NCBI RefSeq assembly: GCF_041248615.1
Contig: NZ_CP158426.1
From: Escherichia coli
GTDB lineage: Bacteria > Pseudomonadota > Gammaproteobacteria > Enterobacterales > Enterobacteriaceae
Length of the DNA stretch: 64,000 nucleotides
Strand: one strand, 5' to 3'
Under the pieces are notes generated by a model. That model was not told the origin of the DNA. It saw only the letters and a program-made list of their open reading frames with translations, and ran no database searches. The stretch's first letter is position 1; every line of letters starts with the position of its first letter. Positions 54,535 through 62,951 of this stretch are shown here, piece by piece. A program made the position numbers and the translations under genes.

Positions 54535-56967
54535 ATGGCGGAACTGAACCTAAGTAACCTGACGGAAGCAGACATCATTACCAAATGCGTTATGCCAGCC
54601 ATTCTCAATGCAGGCTGGGACAACACAACGCAAATCAGACAGGAGGTCAAACTCCGGAACGGTAAAGTCATCGTACGTGGTAAAGTTGCGGCACGCAGAA
54701 CGGTAAAATCTGCTGACATCGTGCTGTATCACAAACCAGGCATTCCCTTAGCCGTGATTGAAGCAAAAGCCAACAAACATGAAATCGGCAAAGGGATGCA
54801 ACAGGGCATTGAATATGCGCGCCTGCTGGACGTTCCTTTTGTTTTTGCCACCAACGGTGATGGCTTTATCTTCCGCGACGCCACCGCAGCCGAAGGTGAA
54901 TGCCTTGAAAAGCAAATAACGCTGGATGACTTCCCCTCCCCCGCTGAACTCTGGCAAAAATTCTGCCTCTGGAAAGGATACACACAAGCTCAGCTTCCGG
55001 TGATTACTCAGGACTATTACGACGATGGCAGCGGTAAATCACCACGTTATTACCAGCTTCAGGCAATCAACAAAACCATTGAAGCCGTCTCCAACGGGCA
55101 AAACCGCGTTCTGCTGGTCATGGCGACCGGAACAGGGAAAACCTATACCGCATTCCAGATCATCTGGCGCCTGTGGAAATCAAAAAATAAAAAACGCATT
55201 TTGTTCCTTGCCGATCGCAACATTCTGGTCGACCAAACCAAACATAATGATTTCCAGCCATTTGGTACGGCAATGACCAAAGTCAGCGGACGCACCATTG
55301 ATCCCGCTTATGAAATTCACCTCGCGCTCTATCAGGCTATAACTGGCCCGGAGGAAGACCAAAAAGCGTTTAAACAAGTCGCACCAGATTTCTTCGATCT
55401 GATCGTGATCGACGAATGCCATCGCGGCAGCGCATCCGAAGACAGCGCCTGGCGAGAGATCCTTGATTATTTCAGTTCCTCCACCCAAATTGGCTTAACC
55501 GCCACGCCAAAAGAGACGCATGAAGTCTCCAGCACGGATTACTTCGGCGATCCGGTTTACGTCTACTCACTAAAAGAAGGGATCGAAGACGGCTTCCTCG
55601 CCCCTTATAAAGTTGTCCGTGTTGATATTGATATAGACCTGCAAGGCTGGCGCCCAACCAAAGGGCAAACTGACTTAAACGGCGAAGTGATCGACGATCG
55701 TATCTATAACCAGAAAGATTTCGATCGCACGATGGTAATCGACGAACGCACAGAACTGGTTGCCAGAACCATTACCGACTACCTCAAGCGCACCAACCCG
55801 ATGGATAAAACCATCGTCTTCTGTAACGACATCGATCATGCAGAACGTATGCGCCGCGCCCTGGTTAATCTCAACCCGGAGCAGGTGAAAAAGAACGACA
55901 AATACGTCATGAAAATCACCGGCGATGATGAAATTGGCAAAGCTCAGTTGGATAACTTCATCAACCCGAAAAAACCGTACCCGGTTATCGCGACCACTTC
56001 AGAGCTGATGACCACCGGTGTGGATGCTAAAACCTGCAAACTGGTAGTACTGGACCAGAACATCCAGTCGATGACCAAATTCAAGCAAATTATCGGTCGT
56101 GGTACACGCATCGACGAACGTTACGGCAAACTCTGGTTTACCATCCTCGACTTTAAAAAAGCCACCGAACTGTTTGCCGATGAGCGTTTCGATGGCATTC
56201 CCGAAAAAGTCATGGATACCACGCCAGAGGATATCGCCGACCCAGAATCTGATTTTGAAGAGAAACTCGAAGAAATCAGCGAACATGACGACGAACAGGT
56301 AACAGGCGTTGATGAACCGCCTGCGCCACCATACCAGGTTACCGATACCGATGATGTCGGCCCACTTCCGGAAGAAGACGAGAAGAAAATCCGCAAGTTT
56401 CACGTCAACGGTGTAGCGGTGGGCGTTATTGCGCAGCGTGTTCAGTATTACGATGCCGACGGTAAACTGGTTACCGAATCTTTTAAAGATTACACCCGCA
56501 AAACACTGCTCAAAGAATATGCCTCGCTGGATGACTTTACCCGCAAGTGGCAGGACGCCGATCGCAAAGAAGCGATCATTCACGAGCTGGAACAACAGGG
56601 GATCATCTGGGAAGTACTGGCAGAAGAAGTCGGTAAAGATCTCGACCCGTTCGACATGCTTTGCCACGTAGTGTATGGTCAGCCGCCGTTAACCCGCAAA
56701 GAGCGCGCCGAGAACGTGCGCAAGCGGAACTACTTCACAAAATACTCTGAAGCAGCGCAAGCCGTGCTCGATAATCTGCTGGATAAATACGCCGATGCGG
56801 GCGTACAGGAGATCGAAAGTATTCAGGTGCTGAAACTTAAGCCATTCGACAGCATGGGCACCTTACCGGAGATTATTAAAACCGGATTTGGCGACCGTAA
56901 CGGGTATAATCAGGCGCTCAGCGAGCTGGAAAACGAAATCTACCAATTACCGCCCCGCTCTGCTTAA
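54535..56967 (+). CDS. hsdR: type I restriction enzyme R subunit (810 aa, type IB/EcoAI-like size class)
   Basis: SF2 helicase motifs (MATGTGKT Walker A, DECHRGSA); length fits the type IB class, not the 1170-aa EcoKI HsdR. Confidence 0.9.
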
Positions 56968-56981
56968 CAACTCTCTTTTGC

Positions 56982-57020
56982 GCCTTCTGCAACCATCATG
57001 TTGCAGAAGGCCTTGTTTTT
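56982..57020 (+). terminator. perfect 11-12-bp hairpin plus T-run in the hsdR-hsdM spacer
   Basis: GCCTTCTGCAA (56982..56992) pairs with TTGCAGAAGGC (57001..57011), then CTTGTTTTT. Confidence 0.5.
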
Positions 57021-57033
57021 CATGGAATACAAC

Positions 57034-58503
57034 ATGTCTATCAGCTCAGTAATCAAATCATTACAAGATATTATGCGCAAAGATGCCGGTGTGGACGGCG
57101 ATGCGCAGCGTCTCGGTCAGCTCTCCTGGCTGCTGTTTTTGAAAATCTTCGATGCCCAGGAAGAGGCGCTGGAACTGGAGCAGGATAACTATCAATATCC
57201 GATCCCACAGCGTTATTTATGGCGCAGTTGGGCCGCAAACGCTCAGGGCATTACCGGTGATTCCCTGCTGGAATTCGTTAATGATGATCTGTTCCCGGCG
57301 TTGAAAAACCTCACTGCGCCTATCGATAAAAACCCACGCGGCTACGTGGTAAAGCAGGCGTTCAGCGATGCCTATAACTACATGAAAAACGGTACGCTAC
57401 TGCGTCAGGTGATCAACAAGCTGAACGAAATTGACTTTACCAGCGCCAGCGAACGGCATCTGTTTGGTGATATTTACGAGCAGATCCTTAAAGATCTGCA
57501 ATCTGCGGGCAATGCGGGCGAATTCTATACTCCACGCGCCGTCACTCGCTTTATGGTGGATCGCGTTGATCCGAAACTCGGCGAATCCATTATGGACCCG
57601 GCCTGCGGTACGGGCGGTTTTCTTGCCTGCGCATTTGATCATGTAAAGAACAAATACGTGAAGAGCGTCGCCGATCATCAGACGCTGCAACAACAGATCC
57701 ACGGTGTTGAGAAAAAACAGCTTCCGCACCTGCTGGCGACCACCAATATGCTGCTACACGGCATTGAAGTGCCAGTGCAAATTCGTCACGACAACACTCT
57801 GAACAAACCGCTTTCCTCCTGGGATGAGCAACTGGATGTCATTGTTACCAACCCGCCGTTTGGTGGCACGGAAGAAGACGGTATTGAGAAGAACTTTCCA
57901 GCAGAGATGCAAACCCGCGAAACGGCGGATTTGTTCCTGCAACTGATTGTGGAAGTACTGGCGAAAAATGGTCGCGCGGCGGTGGTATTGCCGGATGGCA
58001 CACTATTTGGCGAAGGCGTTAAAACCAAAATCAAAAAGCTACTTACCGAAGAGTGCAACCTGCATACCATCGTGCGCTTACCGAATGGTGTGTTTAACCC
58101 CTATACCGGCATTAAAACCAACCTGTTGTTCTTTACCAAAGGTCAGCCAACCAAAGAGATTTGGTTCTATGAGCATCCGTATCCGGCGGGCGTGAAAAAT
58201 TACAGTAAAACTAAGCCGATGAAGTTTGAAGAGTTTCAGGCGGAGATTGACTGGTGGGGTAACGAGGCCGATGGTTTTGCCAGCCGCGTCGAGAATGAGC
58301 AGGCGTGGAAAGTCAGCATTGATGACGTGATTGCGCGCAACTTCAATCTGGATATTAAAAACCCACATCAGGCGGAAACCGTTAGCCATGATCCGGACGA
58401 ACTGTTAGCGCAGTATGCAAAACAGCAGGCGGAGATCCAGACGCTGCGTAATCAACTGCGCGATATTCTTGGCGCTGCGCTGTCTGGCAAGGAGGTTAAC
58501 TAA
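57034..58503 (+). CDS. hsdM: type I N6-adenine DNA methyltransferase M subunit (489 aa from ATG 57034)
   Basis: SAM motif I (DPACGTGGFL) and motif IV (NPPFG); stop overlaps hsdS start (TAATG). Confidence 0.9.
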   Translation: MSISSVIKSLQDIMRKDAGVDGDAQRLGQLSWLLFLKIFDAQEEALELEQDNYQYPIPQRYLWRSWAANAQGITGDSLLEFVNDDLFPALKNLTAPIDKNPRGYVVKQAFSDAYNYMKNGTLLRQVINKLNEIDFTSASERHLFGDIYEQILKDLQSAGNAGEFYTPRAVTRFMVDRVDPKLGESIMDPACGTGGFLACAFDHVKNKYVKSVADHQTLQQQIHGVEKKQLPHLLATTNMLLHGIEVPVQIRHDNTLNKPLSSWDEQLDVIVTNPPFGGTEEDGIEKNFPAEMQTRETADLFLQLIVEVLAKNGRAAVVLPDGTLFGEGVKTKIKKLLTEECNLHTIVRLPNGVFNPYTGIKTNLLFFTKGQPTKEIWFYEHPYPAGVKNYSKTKPMKFEEFQAEIDWWGNEADGFASRVENEQAWKVSIDDVIARNFNLDIKNPHQAETVSHDPDELLAQYAKQQAEIQTLRNQLRDILGAALSGKEVN

Positions 58504-60248
58504 TGAGTGTGGAAAAGCTGATCGTTGATCATATGGAAACCTGGACCTCGGCGTTGCAAACCCGTTCCACCGCCGGGCGCGGCAGTTCCGGAAAAATTGA
58601 TTTATATGGCATTAAGAAATTACGTGAGCTGATTCTGGAACTGGCTGTGCGCGGTAAACTGGTGCCGCAGGACCCGAACGATGAACCGGCGTCGGAGCTG
58701 CTGAAGCGTATTGCGGCAGAAAAAGCAGAGCTGGTGAAGCAAGGTAAAATTAAAAAGCAAAAACCACTGCCGGAAATTAGTGAGGAAGAGAAGCCGTTTG
58801 AATTGCCGGAGGGATGGGAGTGGGTGCGTATTAGTGAAATTGGACATGACTGGGGACAAAAAACTCCAGATAAAGATTTTACTTACATTGATGTTGGTTC
58901 AATAAATAAAGAATATGGAATTATTGAAGAGCCATCTATTCTTTCAGCGAAAGATGCCCCATCGCGAGCGAGAAAAATTGTTCAGCAAGGGACTATCATA
59001 TACTCTACTGTTCGCCCGTATTTGTTAAATATAGCTATTATTGAAAACGAAATACTACCTGAACCGATCGCTAGTACTGCCTTCGCTATTATTCATCCAT
59101 ATACGGCGATGGATGCTAATTTCATTTATTATTATCTACGTTCTCCGGTATTTGTTTGTTATGTTGAAAATTGTCAGACAGGGGTTGCCTATCCAGCAAT
59201 CAATGACAAACAATTTTTTTCTGGAATAACTCCAGTTCCTCCATCCTTGGAACAAGTTCGCATCGCAAACAAAATCAAAGAATTAATGTCCCTCTGCGAC
59301 CAACTGGAACAGCAATCCCTGACCAGTCTGGACGCACATCAACAACTGGTTGAAACCCTGTTGGGAACGCTGACTGACAGCCAAAACGCCGAGGAACTGG
59401 CTGAAAACTGGACGCGTATTAGCGAGCATTTCGACACACTATTTACCACCGAAGCCAGCGTGGATGCGCTAAAACAGACCATTCTGCAACTGGCGGTAAT
59501 GGGTAAACTTGTGCCGCAGGATCCGAATGACGAACCTGCCTCTGAACTGCTCAAACGAATTGCGCAGGAAAAAGCACAACTGGTGAAAGACGGGAAAATA
59601 AAAAAACAAAAACCGTTGCCGCCGATTAGCGATGAGGAAAAACCGTTTGAACTGCCGGATGGGTGGGAGTGGTGTCGTATCGTTGATTTAGCAATTGTAG
59701 GTACAGGCGCAACACCTTCTCGTGATGAGCCCAACTATTGGAAAAATGGAGTAATTAATTGGGTGACAAGTGGAGAAACTTGCTTACCTTTTATTCAAAA
59801 CACCACCGAACATATTACCCAAAAGGCTGTTGATGAAACAAATGTTTCAATCTATCCACCAGGAACTCTTATTATTGCAATGTATGGACAAGGAAAAACA
59901 AGAGGGCAAATCACAGAGTTATTAATAAGTGCTGGAACAAACCAAGCATGCGCAGCCATTCGATTAATCGAAACGGATAATGAGCATCGTAAATTTATAA
60001 AACTTTTTTTTGAAAAGTCTTATGATGATTTACGTAGTTTAGCCGCTGGAGGTGCACAGCCAAATCTAAATGTAGCAAAAATATCACAAACTGTTATACC
60101 ATTGCCCCCTAAAAGAGAACAAAATCGGATCGTTTCTATTGTGGGGGAGTTATTAATTTATTGCGATAAATTACGCAAAAATATCCAGACCGCCCAACAA
60201 ACCCAACTGCACCTTGCAGATGCACTAACTGACGCGGCGATAAACTAA
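58503..60248 (+). CDS. hsdS: type I specificity subunit HsdS (581 aa) with two conserved repeats flanking AT-rich target-recognition domains
   Basis: GKLVPQDPNDEPASELLKRIA...KQKPLP...EEKPFELP(E/D)GWEW repeated at about residues 45-110 and 330-395; AGGAGG SD. Confidence 0.9.
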   Translation: MSVEKLIVDHMETWTSALQTRSTAGRGSSGKIDLYGIKKLRELILELAVRGKLVPQDPNDEPASELLKRIAAEKAELVKQGKIKKQKPLPEISEEEKPFELPEGWEWVRISEIGHDWGQKTPDKDFTYIDVGSINKEYGIIEEPSILSAKDAPSRARKIVQQGTIIYSTVRPYLLNIAIIENEILPEPIASTAFAIIHPYTAMDANFIYYYLRSPVFVCYVENCQTGVAYPAINDKQFFSGITPVPPSLEQVRIANKIKELMSLCDQLEQQSLTSLDAHQQLVETLLGTLTDSQNAEELAENWTRISEHFDTLFTTEASVDALKQTILQLAVMGKLVPQDPNDEPASELLKRIAQEKAQLVKDGKIKKQKPLPPISDEEKPFELPDGWEWCRIVDLAIVGTGATPSRDEPNYWKNGVINWVTSGETCLPFIQNTTEHITQKAVDETNVSIYPPGTLIIAMYGQGKTRGQITELLISAGTNQACAAIRLIETDNEHRKFIKLFFEKSYDDLRSLAAGGAQPNLNVAKISQTVIPLPPKREQNRIVSIVGELLIYCDKLRKNIQTAQQTQLHLADALTDAAIN

Positions 60249-60374
60249 TTTTCTCGCCCTCAAAAAAACCAATAAAGCGGCTCAATAGCCGCTTTATTAA
60301 CATCACCAAAAATTATATTTCACGCTAATTTTCATCTTATTTTCATTAATTTTTAGCTGGACTTTCCCTGTATT

Positions 60375-60394
60375 TACTGATGATATATCCAGGT
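60375..60394. promoter_or_regulatory. putative LexA box in the symE promoter region
   Basis: TACTGATGATATATCCAGGT matches the LexA consensus at 14/20 (CTG-N10-CAG); symE is SOS-induced (established). Confidence 0.4.
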
Positions 60395-60396
60395 AT

Positions 60397-60473
60397 TTAG
60401 CGCGGTGCGGATGTGCGCCAACACACCCACACCGCTCATCACAATCCCTATTTCACGAGAATAGTAATCATGA
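60397..60473 (-). ncRNA. symR: SymR antisense sRNA (approximate position, inferred from symE)
   Basis: in K-12 the ~77-nt SymR is encoded antisense over the symE 5' UTR and start codon; coordinates are by analogy, not read from a conserved sequence. Confidence 0.3.
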
Positions 60474-60811
60474 CTGACACGCATTCTATTGCACAACCGT
60501 TCGAAGCAGAAGTCTCCCCGGCAAATAACCGTCAATTAACCGTGAGTTATGCGAGCCGCTACCCGGATTACAGCCGTATTCCCGCCATCACCCTGAAAGG
60601 TCAGTGGCTGGAAGCTGCCGGTTTTGCCACCGGCACGGCGGTAGATGTCAAAGTGATGGAAGGCTGTATTGTCCTCACCGCCCAACCACCCGCCGCCGAA
60701 GAGAGCGAGCTAATGCAGTCGCTGCGCCAGGTGTGCAAGCTGTCGGCGCGTAAACAAAAGCAGGTGCGGGAATTTATTGGGGTGATTGCGGGTAAACAGA
60801 AAGTCGCCTGA
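60470..60811 (+). CDS. symE: SOS-induced toxin SymE (113 aa, AbrB-fold endoribonuclease-like)
   Basis: [47 protein letters not shown]... matches recalled K-12 SymE. Confidence 0.9.
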
Positions 60812-60857
60812 TACATTGACCCGGTAGCGCCAGTGCTACCGGGTATTATTCGCCACG

Positions 60858-62951
60858 TTATACCAACGCGTTCTCCATCTGTTTTTCAAATGCCTGACGA
60901 ATTAATCCCATAATGTAAGGAAGTTGTGCGAGGTCGCTGAAACCAATTTCCACATCACCATTGCCCCAGCGCCCAACATTTGTCACATCTTTGGCAATAC
61001 CTTTCGGATCGACCAGTTCATGAAACTGCATATTAAGCGACAATCGCAGTCGGCTTTTTTGCGGCACAACATCAACAAAATTCGTTTCAGCTTTAAACGC
61101 AATATATAGCTTCAATACTTCCTGCGTGATCCCTGCGTCCAGGCGCATAACTTCATCGCGAAGATGATCGAATAACACTCGGCTATGCGAACCATCAGCA
61201 AGAAAAGGAAAATCATTCAGGCTGTAACTGGTTTTGTTTTCAGGCTGCCCCCGATAAACAGCTAAAACCTCTTCAGGAAGAGCAGGCGCTTGCCAAACCT
61301 GAACCGCAAGCTCCGCCAGACGATCGGCACGGGCATGAATGGCGGCTTCATCCCATTTTTCGCACTGTCCAAGACCGATATTCAAATAGAGCGGGCTATG
61401 TTTAAAGCCGTCTTCAATATCGCGTTTTTCCGCGAAAGGTCTGTCACTGTAGCGGGAGTTATAGCGCGTTAAAGTGAGATTCCCCAACGTATGTAACAGT
61501 TCTTTATGCACACGCTGCCAGTCGCTTCCCAGCTCTTCACGCCATTTAGCCGACAGATTTTCGTTCTGCGGCATAATATGCTCAATCGTAAACTCTTCCA
61601 CGCGCTCTCTGCGTTTATCGTTTTCCAGTCGTCGTAACCAGTAGCTGCGACTACGGAAGTTATAGAGATCGCGAACTTTTAATTCCCGTTTAAATTCATC
61701 ATCGTTGGGGAAACGACGATATGAAGGCAGATTCAGAAAATGTACCTGAATACTTTCCAGATATTTTTCTTTAATAATGACCTTATAAAAGGTAGCAAAC
61801 GTCTTGTTAAGAGAATTTGTCGGAATCGCACATACTGCACGGCGGAAAACATAAGATTCAATTAAACGAATTATGCTCAGGAAATCTTCGTGAGGCAAAT
61901 CGCCATTTTTATAGTCATGATAAAGCGCCAGTAAGAAAGGATACGCCACATCGACCTTTAACTCGCGCAAATCCTGAAAAGCCGTAGCAAGCGATTTGTC
62001 ACTTTCTTTACCCAATGCCATTGCACAGTAATACTCCGCGTAGATGTGAATATCTTCAACCAGGCGATCTACGCCTTTTTCAGCAACACTCTGGCTGCGG
62101 GCATGGAGTTTAAATGCCTCATAGACTTCATCTGTCCGAGGGATCTCCCCCGTTTTTACCGTCAGATAATGACGCATAAAACTGTCAAAATATTCGCTGT
62201 AACCTTGCTGACCAAAAGCGACTTCCATGGGTCGCCAGTGATCTTCATACAACCGGGTTTGATGCTCTGGTTCGAGGCCCATCAGAATAAAATTGCGCAC
62301 CAGATCGGCCTGACTTAACGCCTTACCGGTAGAGTTCATACTTTCAAAAATCAGTTGCGGATTATCCTGACCACGATTAAGCGCCACATCGACAATTAAT
62401 AATTTTGCTAACCCACGACATAAGGGAATCAAGTCATCCCCGAGTTTGGCAATTTGTTCATCAAAGAAAGTAAAGTTTTCCATTATTCGATGGGAATAGT
62501 TTTCTGGCATTGGTCTTTGTTTTATTAACGCCAGCAAACTGTCTTTATCAGTCTCGGTCAGCAGTAATTTAAATCCTTTCTCGCCGGACTCATAAGGATT
62601 GAGTAAATAATAATTACGCAATTTCATTGCTGAAAAGCCATCAAAAACTTCGTCTTCGCCAAGATGACGCGATAAAGCCTCAATCAGCAACATTGCGGTC
62701 GTCAGCCTTTGTTGACCATCAATGACCAGTAACGGAGAAATACCAGAAACCTGATACAACCCCTGCTCAATATAAACAACCGAACCGATAAAATGCGCTG
62801 ATATATCGTCACGCTTTCCGGCACGAATGATGTCGTCCCAAAGTTGCCGACATTGTTGTTCTGTCCATGAATAAGTCCGTTGATAAATGGGAATAACAAA
62901 CTGCTGCGAACGTTTTAAAAAATCGAGTAGGCGGGCTTCTGTAGCTTTCAT
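60858..62951 (-). CDS. second DUF262 + DUF1524 (GmrSD-family) putative type IV restriction endonuclease, occupying the K-12 mcrBC slot
   Basis: 697 aa; N-terminal IPIYQRTYSW and VIDGQQRLTTA (DUF262); C-terminal FTIEHIMPQN...GNLTLTRYN (DUF1524). Confidence 0.7.
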   Translation of the reverse strand: MKATEARLLDFLKRSQQFVIPIYQRTYSWTEQQCRQLWDDIIRAGKRDDISAHFIGSVVYIEQGLYQVSGISPLLVIDGQQRLTTAMLLIEALSRHLGEDEVFDGFSAMKLRNYYLLNPYESGEKGFKLLLTETDKDSLLALIKQRPMPENYSHRIMENFTFFDEQIAKLGDDLIPLCRGLAKLLIVDVALNRGQDNPQLIFESMNSTGKALSQADLVRNFILMGLEPEHQTRLYEDHWRPMEVAFGQQGYSEYFDSFMRHYLTVKTGEIPRTDEVYEAFKLHARSQSVAEKGVDRLVEDIHIYAEYYCAMALGKESDKSLATAFQDLRELKVDVAYPFLLALYHDYKNGDLPHEDFLSIIRLIESYVFRRAVCAIPTNSLNKTFATFYKVIIKEKYLESIQVHFLNLPSYRRFPNDDEFKRELKVRDLYNFRSRSYWLRRLENDKRRERVEEFTIEHIMPQNENLSAKWREELGSDWQRVHKELLHTLGNLTLTRYNSRYSDRPFAEKRDIEDGFKHSPLYLNIGLGQCEKWDEAAIHARADRLAELAVQVWQAPALPEEVLAVYRGQPENKTSYSLNDFPFLADGSHSRVLFDHLRDEVMRLDAGITQEVLKLYIAFKAETNFVDVVPQKSRLRLSLNMQFHELVDPKGIAKDVTNVGRWGNGDVEIGFSDLAQLPYIMGLIRQAFEKQMENALV

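Follow-up and report, generated by a model that had tools for sequence, protein, structure and literature searches.

Is the symE toxin gene, which lies among the restriction genes of the immigration control region (ICR) of the Escherichia coli chromosome, a fixed point of that region, or is it one of its exchangeable parts? The window, a stretch of 64,000 nucleotides that takes in the ICR, carries symE between type I hsd genes and a GmrSD-type gene. A sequence-only reading of it had proposed that symE and its upstream region are kept essentially as in K-12 although the genes on both sides differ, that a LexA-box candidate lies in the promoter region, and that the SOS-induced SymE/SymR pair is a fixed anchor across allelic restriction cassettes. 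Its coordinates were exact, the box TACTGATGATATATCCAGGT beginning at position 60375 and the TGA stop of symE ending at 60811; SymR, which it had named but not placed, was located by an Rfam scan. The symE/symR module is real and intact, correctly located and identified, yet ordinary: by every feature testable in sequence the locus appears to fit the SymE/SymR family and the LexA regulon. We consider it highly probable that the window holds an intact symE/symR allele between type IB hsdRMS and GmrSD, with K-12-type regulation by orthology, and that this allele is an accessory block acting as a recombination joint.

The module and its neighbours

The features of the locus, in order along the window, are these:

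54535-56967: hsdR, EcoAI/type IB family
56998-58503: hsdM
58503-60248: hsdS
60268-60301: GC-rich terminator-like hairpin with T/A tracts, just 3' of hsdS (terminator scan)
60349-60374, + strand: conserved promoter-upstream segment (11-genome alignment)
60375-60394, + strand: LexA (SOS) box TACTGATGATATATCCAGGT, CTG-N10-CAG, ortholog of the K-12 symE/yjiW box
60399-60475, - strand: symR, 77-nt cis-antisense antitoxin RNA (Rfam RF01809)
60448-60464: hairpin CTATT-N7-AATAG, inner stem (tip) of the SymR 5' hairpin, with a matching hairpin in symE mRNA
60470-60811, + strand: symE coding sequence, 113 aa, AbrB/MazE-like fold, TGA stop at 60809-60811
60483-60488, - strand: TAGAAT hexamer, probable symR -10, 7 nt upstream of the SymR 5' end and inside the symE ORF
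60820-60843: inverted repeat CCCGGTAGC-N6-GCTACCGGG between the convergent symE and GmrSD genes (read from the sequence)
60858-62951, - strand: GmrSD-type gene, 697 aa, GmrSD_N + GmrSD_C + DUF5655, convergent with symE

The symE product matches the Pfam family SymE_toxin (PF08845) with 76.7 bits (E=1.4e-21; cut-off 29), is identical to K-12 SymE at 108 of 113 amino acids (96%), and is called "endoribonuclease SymE" in a RefSeq record of 100% identity. SymE was first thought to promote RNA cleavage, an assignment later challenged according to PMC11894785, in whose summary Thompson 2022 saw no RNA cleavage by SymE and found that its non-specific DNA binding condenses the nucleoid. One RefSeq genome, that of isolate 362 (NZ_OW967178.1), has 100% identity over the 609-bp query, and differs from the window at 2 of the 11,752 bases compared.

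In K-12 the order of genes at the locus is mrr - hsdRMS (type IA) - symE - mcrBC. The proposal that both symE flanks are unlike those of K-12 holds: type IB hsd genes replace type IA on the left and GmrSD replaces mcrBC on the right. DNA homology with K-12 is limited to 60339-60807, at 92.8% identity (megablast). Within it the coding sequence is 94.2% identical in the MAFFT alignment (94.7% by blastn, query 1-338), the LexA box 95% and the 5'UTR/symR stretch 86.7% (both MAFFT), while the adjacent core gene yjiA is 97.2% identical; by this comparison the symE module has diverged from K-12 more than the surrounding core genome. The description "essentially K-12-like" stands for the protein and the architecture, and is somewhat overstated for the DNA. 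Window and K-12 symE/symR (yjiW/ryjC) agree in locus, orientation and architecture, in the 113-aa SymE and the 77-nt SymR lying over 5'UTR and start codon, in the stretch of the ORF that holds the symR promoter in K-12, which is identical, and in the start of the LexA box 95 nt upstream of the ATG. They differ by 10 substitutions in the 75-nt 5'UTR/symR stretch, by the sequence of a hairpin loop within it (CCTGGAG in K-12, TCACGAG in the window), and by the stop codon, TAA in K-12 and TGA in the window.

Two hairpin-forming sequences flank the module. The terminator-like hairpin at 60268-60301 was confined to IB-type genomes in the module alignment, and is assigned on that basis to the type IB hsd cassette, outside the common symE module. 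The inverted repeat at 60820-60843 was common only to the GmrSD-flanked genomes and is a probable bidirectional terminator of the GmrSD-side cassette; the terminator scan made no call for it. The GmrSD ORF beyond it consists of 697 uninterrupted codons, for which RefSeq has a 387-aa CDS plus a pseudogene labelled "DUF262, missing C-terminus". The same split annotation is given to identical sequence and to relatives in many strains, and looks like an annotation artefact.

Much of this is known. The order GmrSD - 'endoribonuclease' - hsdS - hsdM - hsdR - Mrr - GTPase was drawn in 2015 (He et al., PMC4437046, Fig. 8), and symE symR is one of three toxin-antitoxin systems accompanying type IA, IB and ID genes there (EcoSal Plus review of 2025, PMC12707154, Fig. 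10, Table 3). From GmrSD through the yjiA GTPase the gene order of the GmrSD-bearing ICR alleles in these two papers is that of the window and nothing essential differs; a DUF262 protein adjoins yjiA in the window, whereas Mrr does so in the allele of PMC4437046. Kawano, Aravind & Storz (2007; Kawano 2007 below) aligned symER of several E. coli, Shigella and Salmonella strains and noted the association of SymE with restriction-modification genes (PMC1891008). The module, its three-layer repression and its ICR place next to GmrSD or McrBC are already published; the LexA box, the module boundaries and the module's frequency are not discussed in PMC4437046 or PMC12707154. To these accounts the present analysis brings corrections: the K-12 box is atypical, the box lies at a near-fixed distance across Enterobacterales, and symE is present in only about half (~53%) of complete E. 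coli genomes.

The LexA box and the antisense RNA

The box TACTGATGATATATCCAGGT matches TACTG(TA)5CAGTA at 14 of 20 positions, with both its CTG and CAG arms intact; its K-12 counterpart TACTGATGATATATACAGGT matches at 15, and a change from A to C at position 15 is the sole difference between them. The symE promoter region in the window keeps a LexA box one base removed from the verified one of K-12. Between this box and the 3' end of SymR there are 4 nt. By itself, a match at 14 of 20 positions is no rarity: Markov simulations of 64 kb gave 0.92 +/- 1.1 matches of at least 14/20, against 2 observed in the window. When an intact CTG/CAG core was required the expectation fell to 0.09.

For a graded measure we recovered the heterology index (HI) matrix from PMC12527982, Table S1, by an L1 fit; the matrix, additive and strand-symmetric, reproduces all 140 values exactly, an earlier least-squares fit with strand flipping having failed (RMSE 1.8). 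With it the window box scores 10.80 and the K-12 box 9.40, and TACTGATGATATATCCAGGT ranks second of the 25 CTG-N10-CAG sites in the window. The cluster of LexA-binding K-12 sites has its upper edge at HI ~13.6 (13.60) (PMC12527982, Table S1), which places the window box in the LexA-binding class. By the Berg-von Hippel approximation the A to C change is predicted to weaken LexA binding by e^1.4, or ~4-fold, without abolishing it. The window score is also below those of two sequences of the same Table S1, at 12.09 and 12.85, that are given there without gene names and that we take to be the boxes of polB and dinB respectively. In K-12, symE expression is LexA-dependent, its box having an HI of 7.9 by a different published matrix, and induction is weak, at 1.5-fold with AZT and with a 2.5-fold LexA dependence (PMC11228462, Table 1); the K-12 box itself is credited to Fernandez De Henestrosa 2000 in PMC1891008.

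The C at position 15 is no peculiarity of the window. It was present in 9 of 11 genomes, the A allele being found in K-12 alone (1/11; positions 8037-8056 of the K-12 locus sequence), and among 105 metagenome contigs 65 carried the window box allele and 6 that of K-12. The C variant is the majority natural allele, and the A of K-12 the rare, atypical one.

Conservation extends well beyond E. coli. Among 55 loci with SymE homologs, taken from one-genome-per-species contigs of about a dozen genera of Enterobacterales (including Escherichia, Pseudocitrobacter, Kosakonia, Pantoea, Citrobacter, Salmonella, Kluyvera, Raoultella, Klebsiella, Phytobacter, Leclercia and Chimaeribacter), 50 have a CTG-N10-CAG sequence 93-101 nt upstream of the ATG, or ~140 nt upstream in three. 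The HI is at most 13.6 at 37 of the 55, against a background of 4 sites in 510 kb, or 0.0016 per 200 nt. By this distribution the box qualifies as a phylogenetic footprint. It is credible because an intact core, orthology with K-12, an HI in the binding class and conservation come together in it; core, orthology and conservation across genera speak against a chance 14/20 match, which we reject, and the LexA-box candidate at 60375-60394 is confirmed. A scan of 60200-60900 for the sigma-70 consensus found no canonical promoter; the box may overlap the symE -10 or start site.

The antisense partner is present at full length. The symR sequence scores 88.1 bits against RF01809 (gathering score 61, E=3.5e-17) over model positions 1-77 of 77, and lies across the 5'UTR and Shine-Dalgarno sequence of symE and into its coding sequence by 6 nt (60470-60475). 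SymR is predicted to fold into a pair of strong hairpins with a free energy of -38.5 kcal/mol (z=-6.0, with 0 of 200 shuffled sequences as stable), and K-12 SymR gives -37.8. The symR promoter was placed inside the symE ORF by Kawano 2007 (PMC1891008). The stretch that carries it in K-12, 60470-60534, is identical in the window; a simple sigma-70 scan found no canonical promoter there, and TAGAAT at 60483-60488 is the probable -10. The Shine-Dalgarno sequence of the window is CGAG, weaker than the GGAG of K-12, and translation may therefore be lower. In strain Esc24 the second SymR hairpin has an inverted tip (window counterpart ~60416-60423), GCGCCAAC having become GTTGGCGC.

In K-12, symE is repressed by LexA, SymR and Lon, and overproduced SymE is toxic; SymR is stable, is present in ~10-fold excess, and lowers both translation and mRNA level (PMC1891008). 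If the window allele behaves as its K-12 ortholog does, LexA bound to the CTG-N10-CAG box at 60375-60394 would keep symE off until damage triggers LexA self-cleavage. The stable 77-nt SymR, made from its promoter inside the symE ORF, would then pair with the 5'UTR, ribosome-binding site and start codon, so blocking translation and lowering symE mRNA; such SymE as is made would be degraded by Lon protease, and its accumulation would be toxic. LexA binding and damage induction of the window allele are attributed to it here by analogy with the K-12 allele.

E. coli has another LexA-controlled type I toxin-antitoxin module, tisB/istR-1. The two are alike in that LexA represses transcription of the toxin gene and a small antisense-type RNA represses translation of the toxin. 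They differ in the toxin, TisB being a small membrane peptide whereas SymE is a soluble DNA-binding protein of the AbrB fold, and in the RNA: IstR-1 is divergently encoded with limited complementarity, SymR fully complementary, stable and in ~10-fold excess. The labile partner in symE/symR, moreover, is the toxin, a Lon substrate, and not the antitoxin.

Distribution of symE and of its flanking cassettes

A sensitive blastn search found the symE coding sequence in 2871 of 5426 complete E. coli genomes (~53%), single-copy and chromosomal; yjiA was found in 5382 of the 5426, and yjiS-yjiR in 3740. We read the annotation of the locus in 18 non-laboratory genomes spread along the list of yjiA matches. 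Ten have symE, with these neighbours:

NCTC9100: type IA hsd on the left, DUF1998/STY4851 remnant on the right
2014C-3050, VE-T10, E16 and AHB29: type IB and GmrSD
Ec42: type IA and GmrSD
REL606: type IA and mcrBC
Esc24 and E30: M-S-R-ordered system on the left, yjiS directly on the right
M172-1: hsdR remnant and GmrSD

The other eight lack it:

4 of 8: yjiA-brnTA-IS1-mdtM, the whole region deleted
3 of 8: yjiA-penicillin G acylase-yjiS
1 of 8: scrambled by IS1

We read the M-S-R-ordered system of Esc24 and E30 as the type ID family of PMC12707154, a paper in which the region is bounded by the conserved genes yjiA and yjiN. The brnTA-IS1 and penicillin G acylase types are two common E. coli alleles that have no restriction genes between yjiA and mdtM or yjiS, the former being without yjiS and yjiR as well.

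Taking the ten symE-positive genomes with K-12 and the window, the left neighbour of the ~440-470-bp module is a type IA, IB or ID hsd system or an hsdR remnant, and the right neighbour is mcrBC, GmrSD, the DUF1998/STY4851 remnant or yjiS directly. The combinations found are IA with mcrBC, GmrSD or DUF1998, IB with GmrSD, and ID with yjiS. Alignment of the flanks defines a common block from ~60349 to 60787-60811, outside which homology drops sharply. On the left, identity is uniform across classes from ~60349, making the segment 60349-60374 the module edge common to all cassette contexts; megablast breakpoints fall at query 89-91 in many genomes, and the 10 nt at 60339-60348 go with the left cassette. 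On the right, the last 4-25 nt of the symE coding sequence go with the right cassette, K-12 and REL606 sharing a TAA-ending variant and Esc24 and E30 having another. Haplotypes are mixed within the block too: the 5'UTR variants TAATC and CAGTT are tied neither to one hsd family (IA or IB) nor to one right neighbour (GmrSD or mcrBC), and REL606 is a mosaic that joins the 5'UTR haplotype of the window to the 3' end and TAA stop of K-12.

Since cassettes re-assort around the module and haplotypes are mosaic within it, the module behaves as a recombination joint. It is a short conserved block lying between variable restriction cassettes, and recombination across it has re-assorted them repeatedly. 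The fixed anchor proposed from the window survives in part: the module is kept while cassettes re-assort around symE, but it is not fixed, being found in 2871 of 5426 genomes and missing from 8 of the 18 loci. It is best described as a joint of restriction-bearing alleles, not a universal anchor.

The variable loop and the link to hsd genes

The most variable 7-nt stretch of the module is the loop at 60453-60459, which forms the tip of the SymR 5' hairpin and carries the symE Shine-Dalgarno sequence; from strain to strain it is hypervariable. The 105 metagenome contigs have 16 distinct loops and the 11 genomes have 7, and diversity averages 0.45 in the loop where the module overall has 0.082 (rank 1 of 460 scanned windows); the TCACGAG allele occurs in 11 of the 105 contigs. 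For pairs with 3-10 differences in 425 core positions, loop differences are bimodal (0 in 71 pairs, 1-2 in 15, at least 3 in 184). Such a pattern suggests that loops are replaced en bloc, or that recombination has shuffled alleles of long standing.

Two other origins of the variants were rejected. They are not inversions of each other like the one at the hairpin 2 tip of Esc24, none of the 16 being the reverse complement of another, nor do they change instantaneously in the manner of phase variation, the loops being identical in all 26 pairs with at most 2 core differences. Our literature search found no paper describing a hypervariable symE loop. Because the Shine-Dalgarno sequence lies in it, the loop offers a modest lead, open to testing, on the ways in which toxins under antisense control adjust expression or specificity.

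Could SymE/SymR, then, do something for the restriction genes beside it? As a functional type I restriction-modification accessory, it would supply an SOS-induced DNA-binding protein acting with or on the adjacent Hsd enzyme, perhaps by protecting or compacting the chromosome when unmodified sites arise through damage and repair, or as a fail-safe. In every sampled symE-positive E. coli genome symE does follow immediately on the last gene or remnant of a type I operon, in the same orientation, and this adjacency holds for three unrelated families (IA, IB and ID). In other genera an hsd-to-symE junction was found at about 16 of the 55 loci, with gaps of ~220-400 bp (950 bp in one), and hsdS remnants at three more; SymE is also SOS-controlled and, as PMC11894785 has it, a non-specific DNA binder. 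Yet about 34 of the 55 homologs have no type I gene within 5 kb, other members of the family adjoin transcription factors, transposons and pathogenicity islands, and Kawano 2007 read the link to restriction-modification as co-location of selfish elements (PMC1891008). Moreover, a terminator-like hairpin separates hsdS from symE, M172-1 has retained symE despite its hsd deletion, and deletion of symER in K-12 gave no detectable phenotype (PMC1891008). We regard an accessory function as improbable, and give equally little credence to its extended form, in which SymE is an SOS-triggered restriction accessory whose expression level or antisense specificity is under diversifying selection. The tie of symE to hsd 3' ends across three families and several genera, taken with the hypervariable loop, nevertheless hints that SymE/SymR is more than a passenger, and both features appear to be unpublished.

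The opposite possibility, that the module of this strain is decaying and has lost regulation or expression through the A to C change in the box and a weak Shine-Dalgarno sequence, we find harder still to credit. It can appeal to a box that matches at 14 positions where that of K-12 matches at 15 and scores 1.4 HI units higher, to CGAG in place of GGAG, and to a 5'UTR only 86.7% identical to that of K-12. But the symE ORF is intact and its product 96% identical to that of K-12; C at position 15 is what most natural boxes carry, with K-12 the outlier, and the HI of the window box is still in the LexA-binding class; SymR clears the Rfam threshold by a wide margin, and its fold is as strong as that of K-12; and the TCACGAG loop recurs among the metagenome contigs (11/105). 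An intact allele, regulated as in K-12 and carried in an accessory recombination-joint block, remains much the best account of the locus.

Outside E. coli the hsd genes and symE have diverged to very unequal degrees. At five loci, in Raoultella, Kluyvera, Citrobacter and Klebsiella, the HsdM and HsdR proteins encoded next to symE are 87-98% identical to those of E. coli (91-99% in another comparison across other genera), whereas for the SymE beside them the figure is no more than 67-72%; transfer between genera is probably more recent for hsd than for symE. In several Citrobacter and Raoultella genomes a single contig bears two SymE homologs, separated by 10-36 kb and each with its own CTG-N10-CAG box, the boxes being of different sequence classes (TACTGATGATAT... 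and TACTGG...TTTACAGG).

The window also has a LexA-like box stronger than that of symE. This sequence, CACTGTTCATAAATACAGTA at 4405-4424, matches at 16 of 20 positions with an HI of 7.25 (vs 10.80 for the symE box) and lies in a prophage-like stretch, 86 nt upstream of a KilA-N gene. The ORFs around it are on the - strand (3492-4319, 4470-4865, 4862-5221 and 5188-5682), and RusA, PerC and a 119-aa protein with only the DNA-binding domain of LexA are encoded nearby; the region may be an SOS-controlled switch of the antirepressor type.
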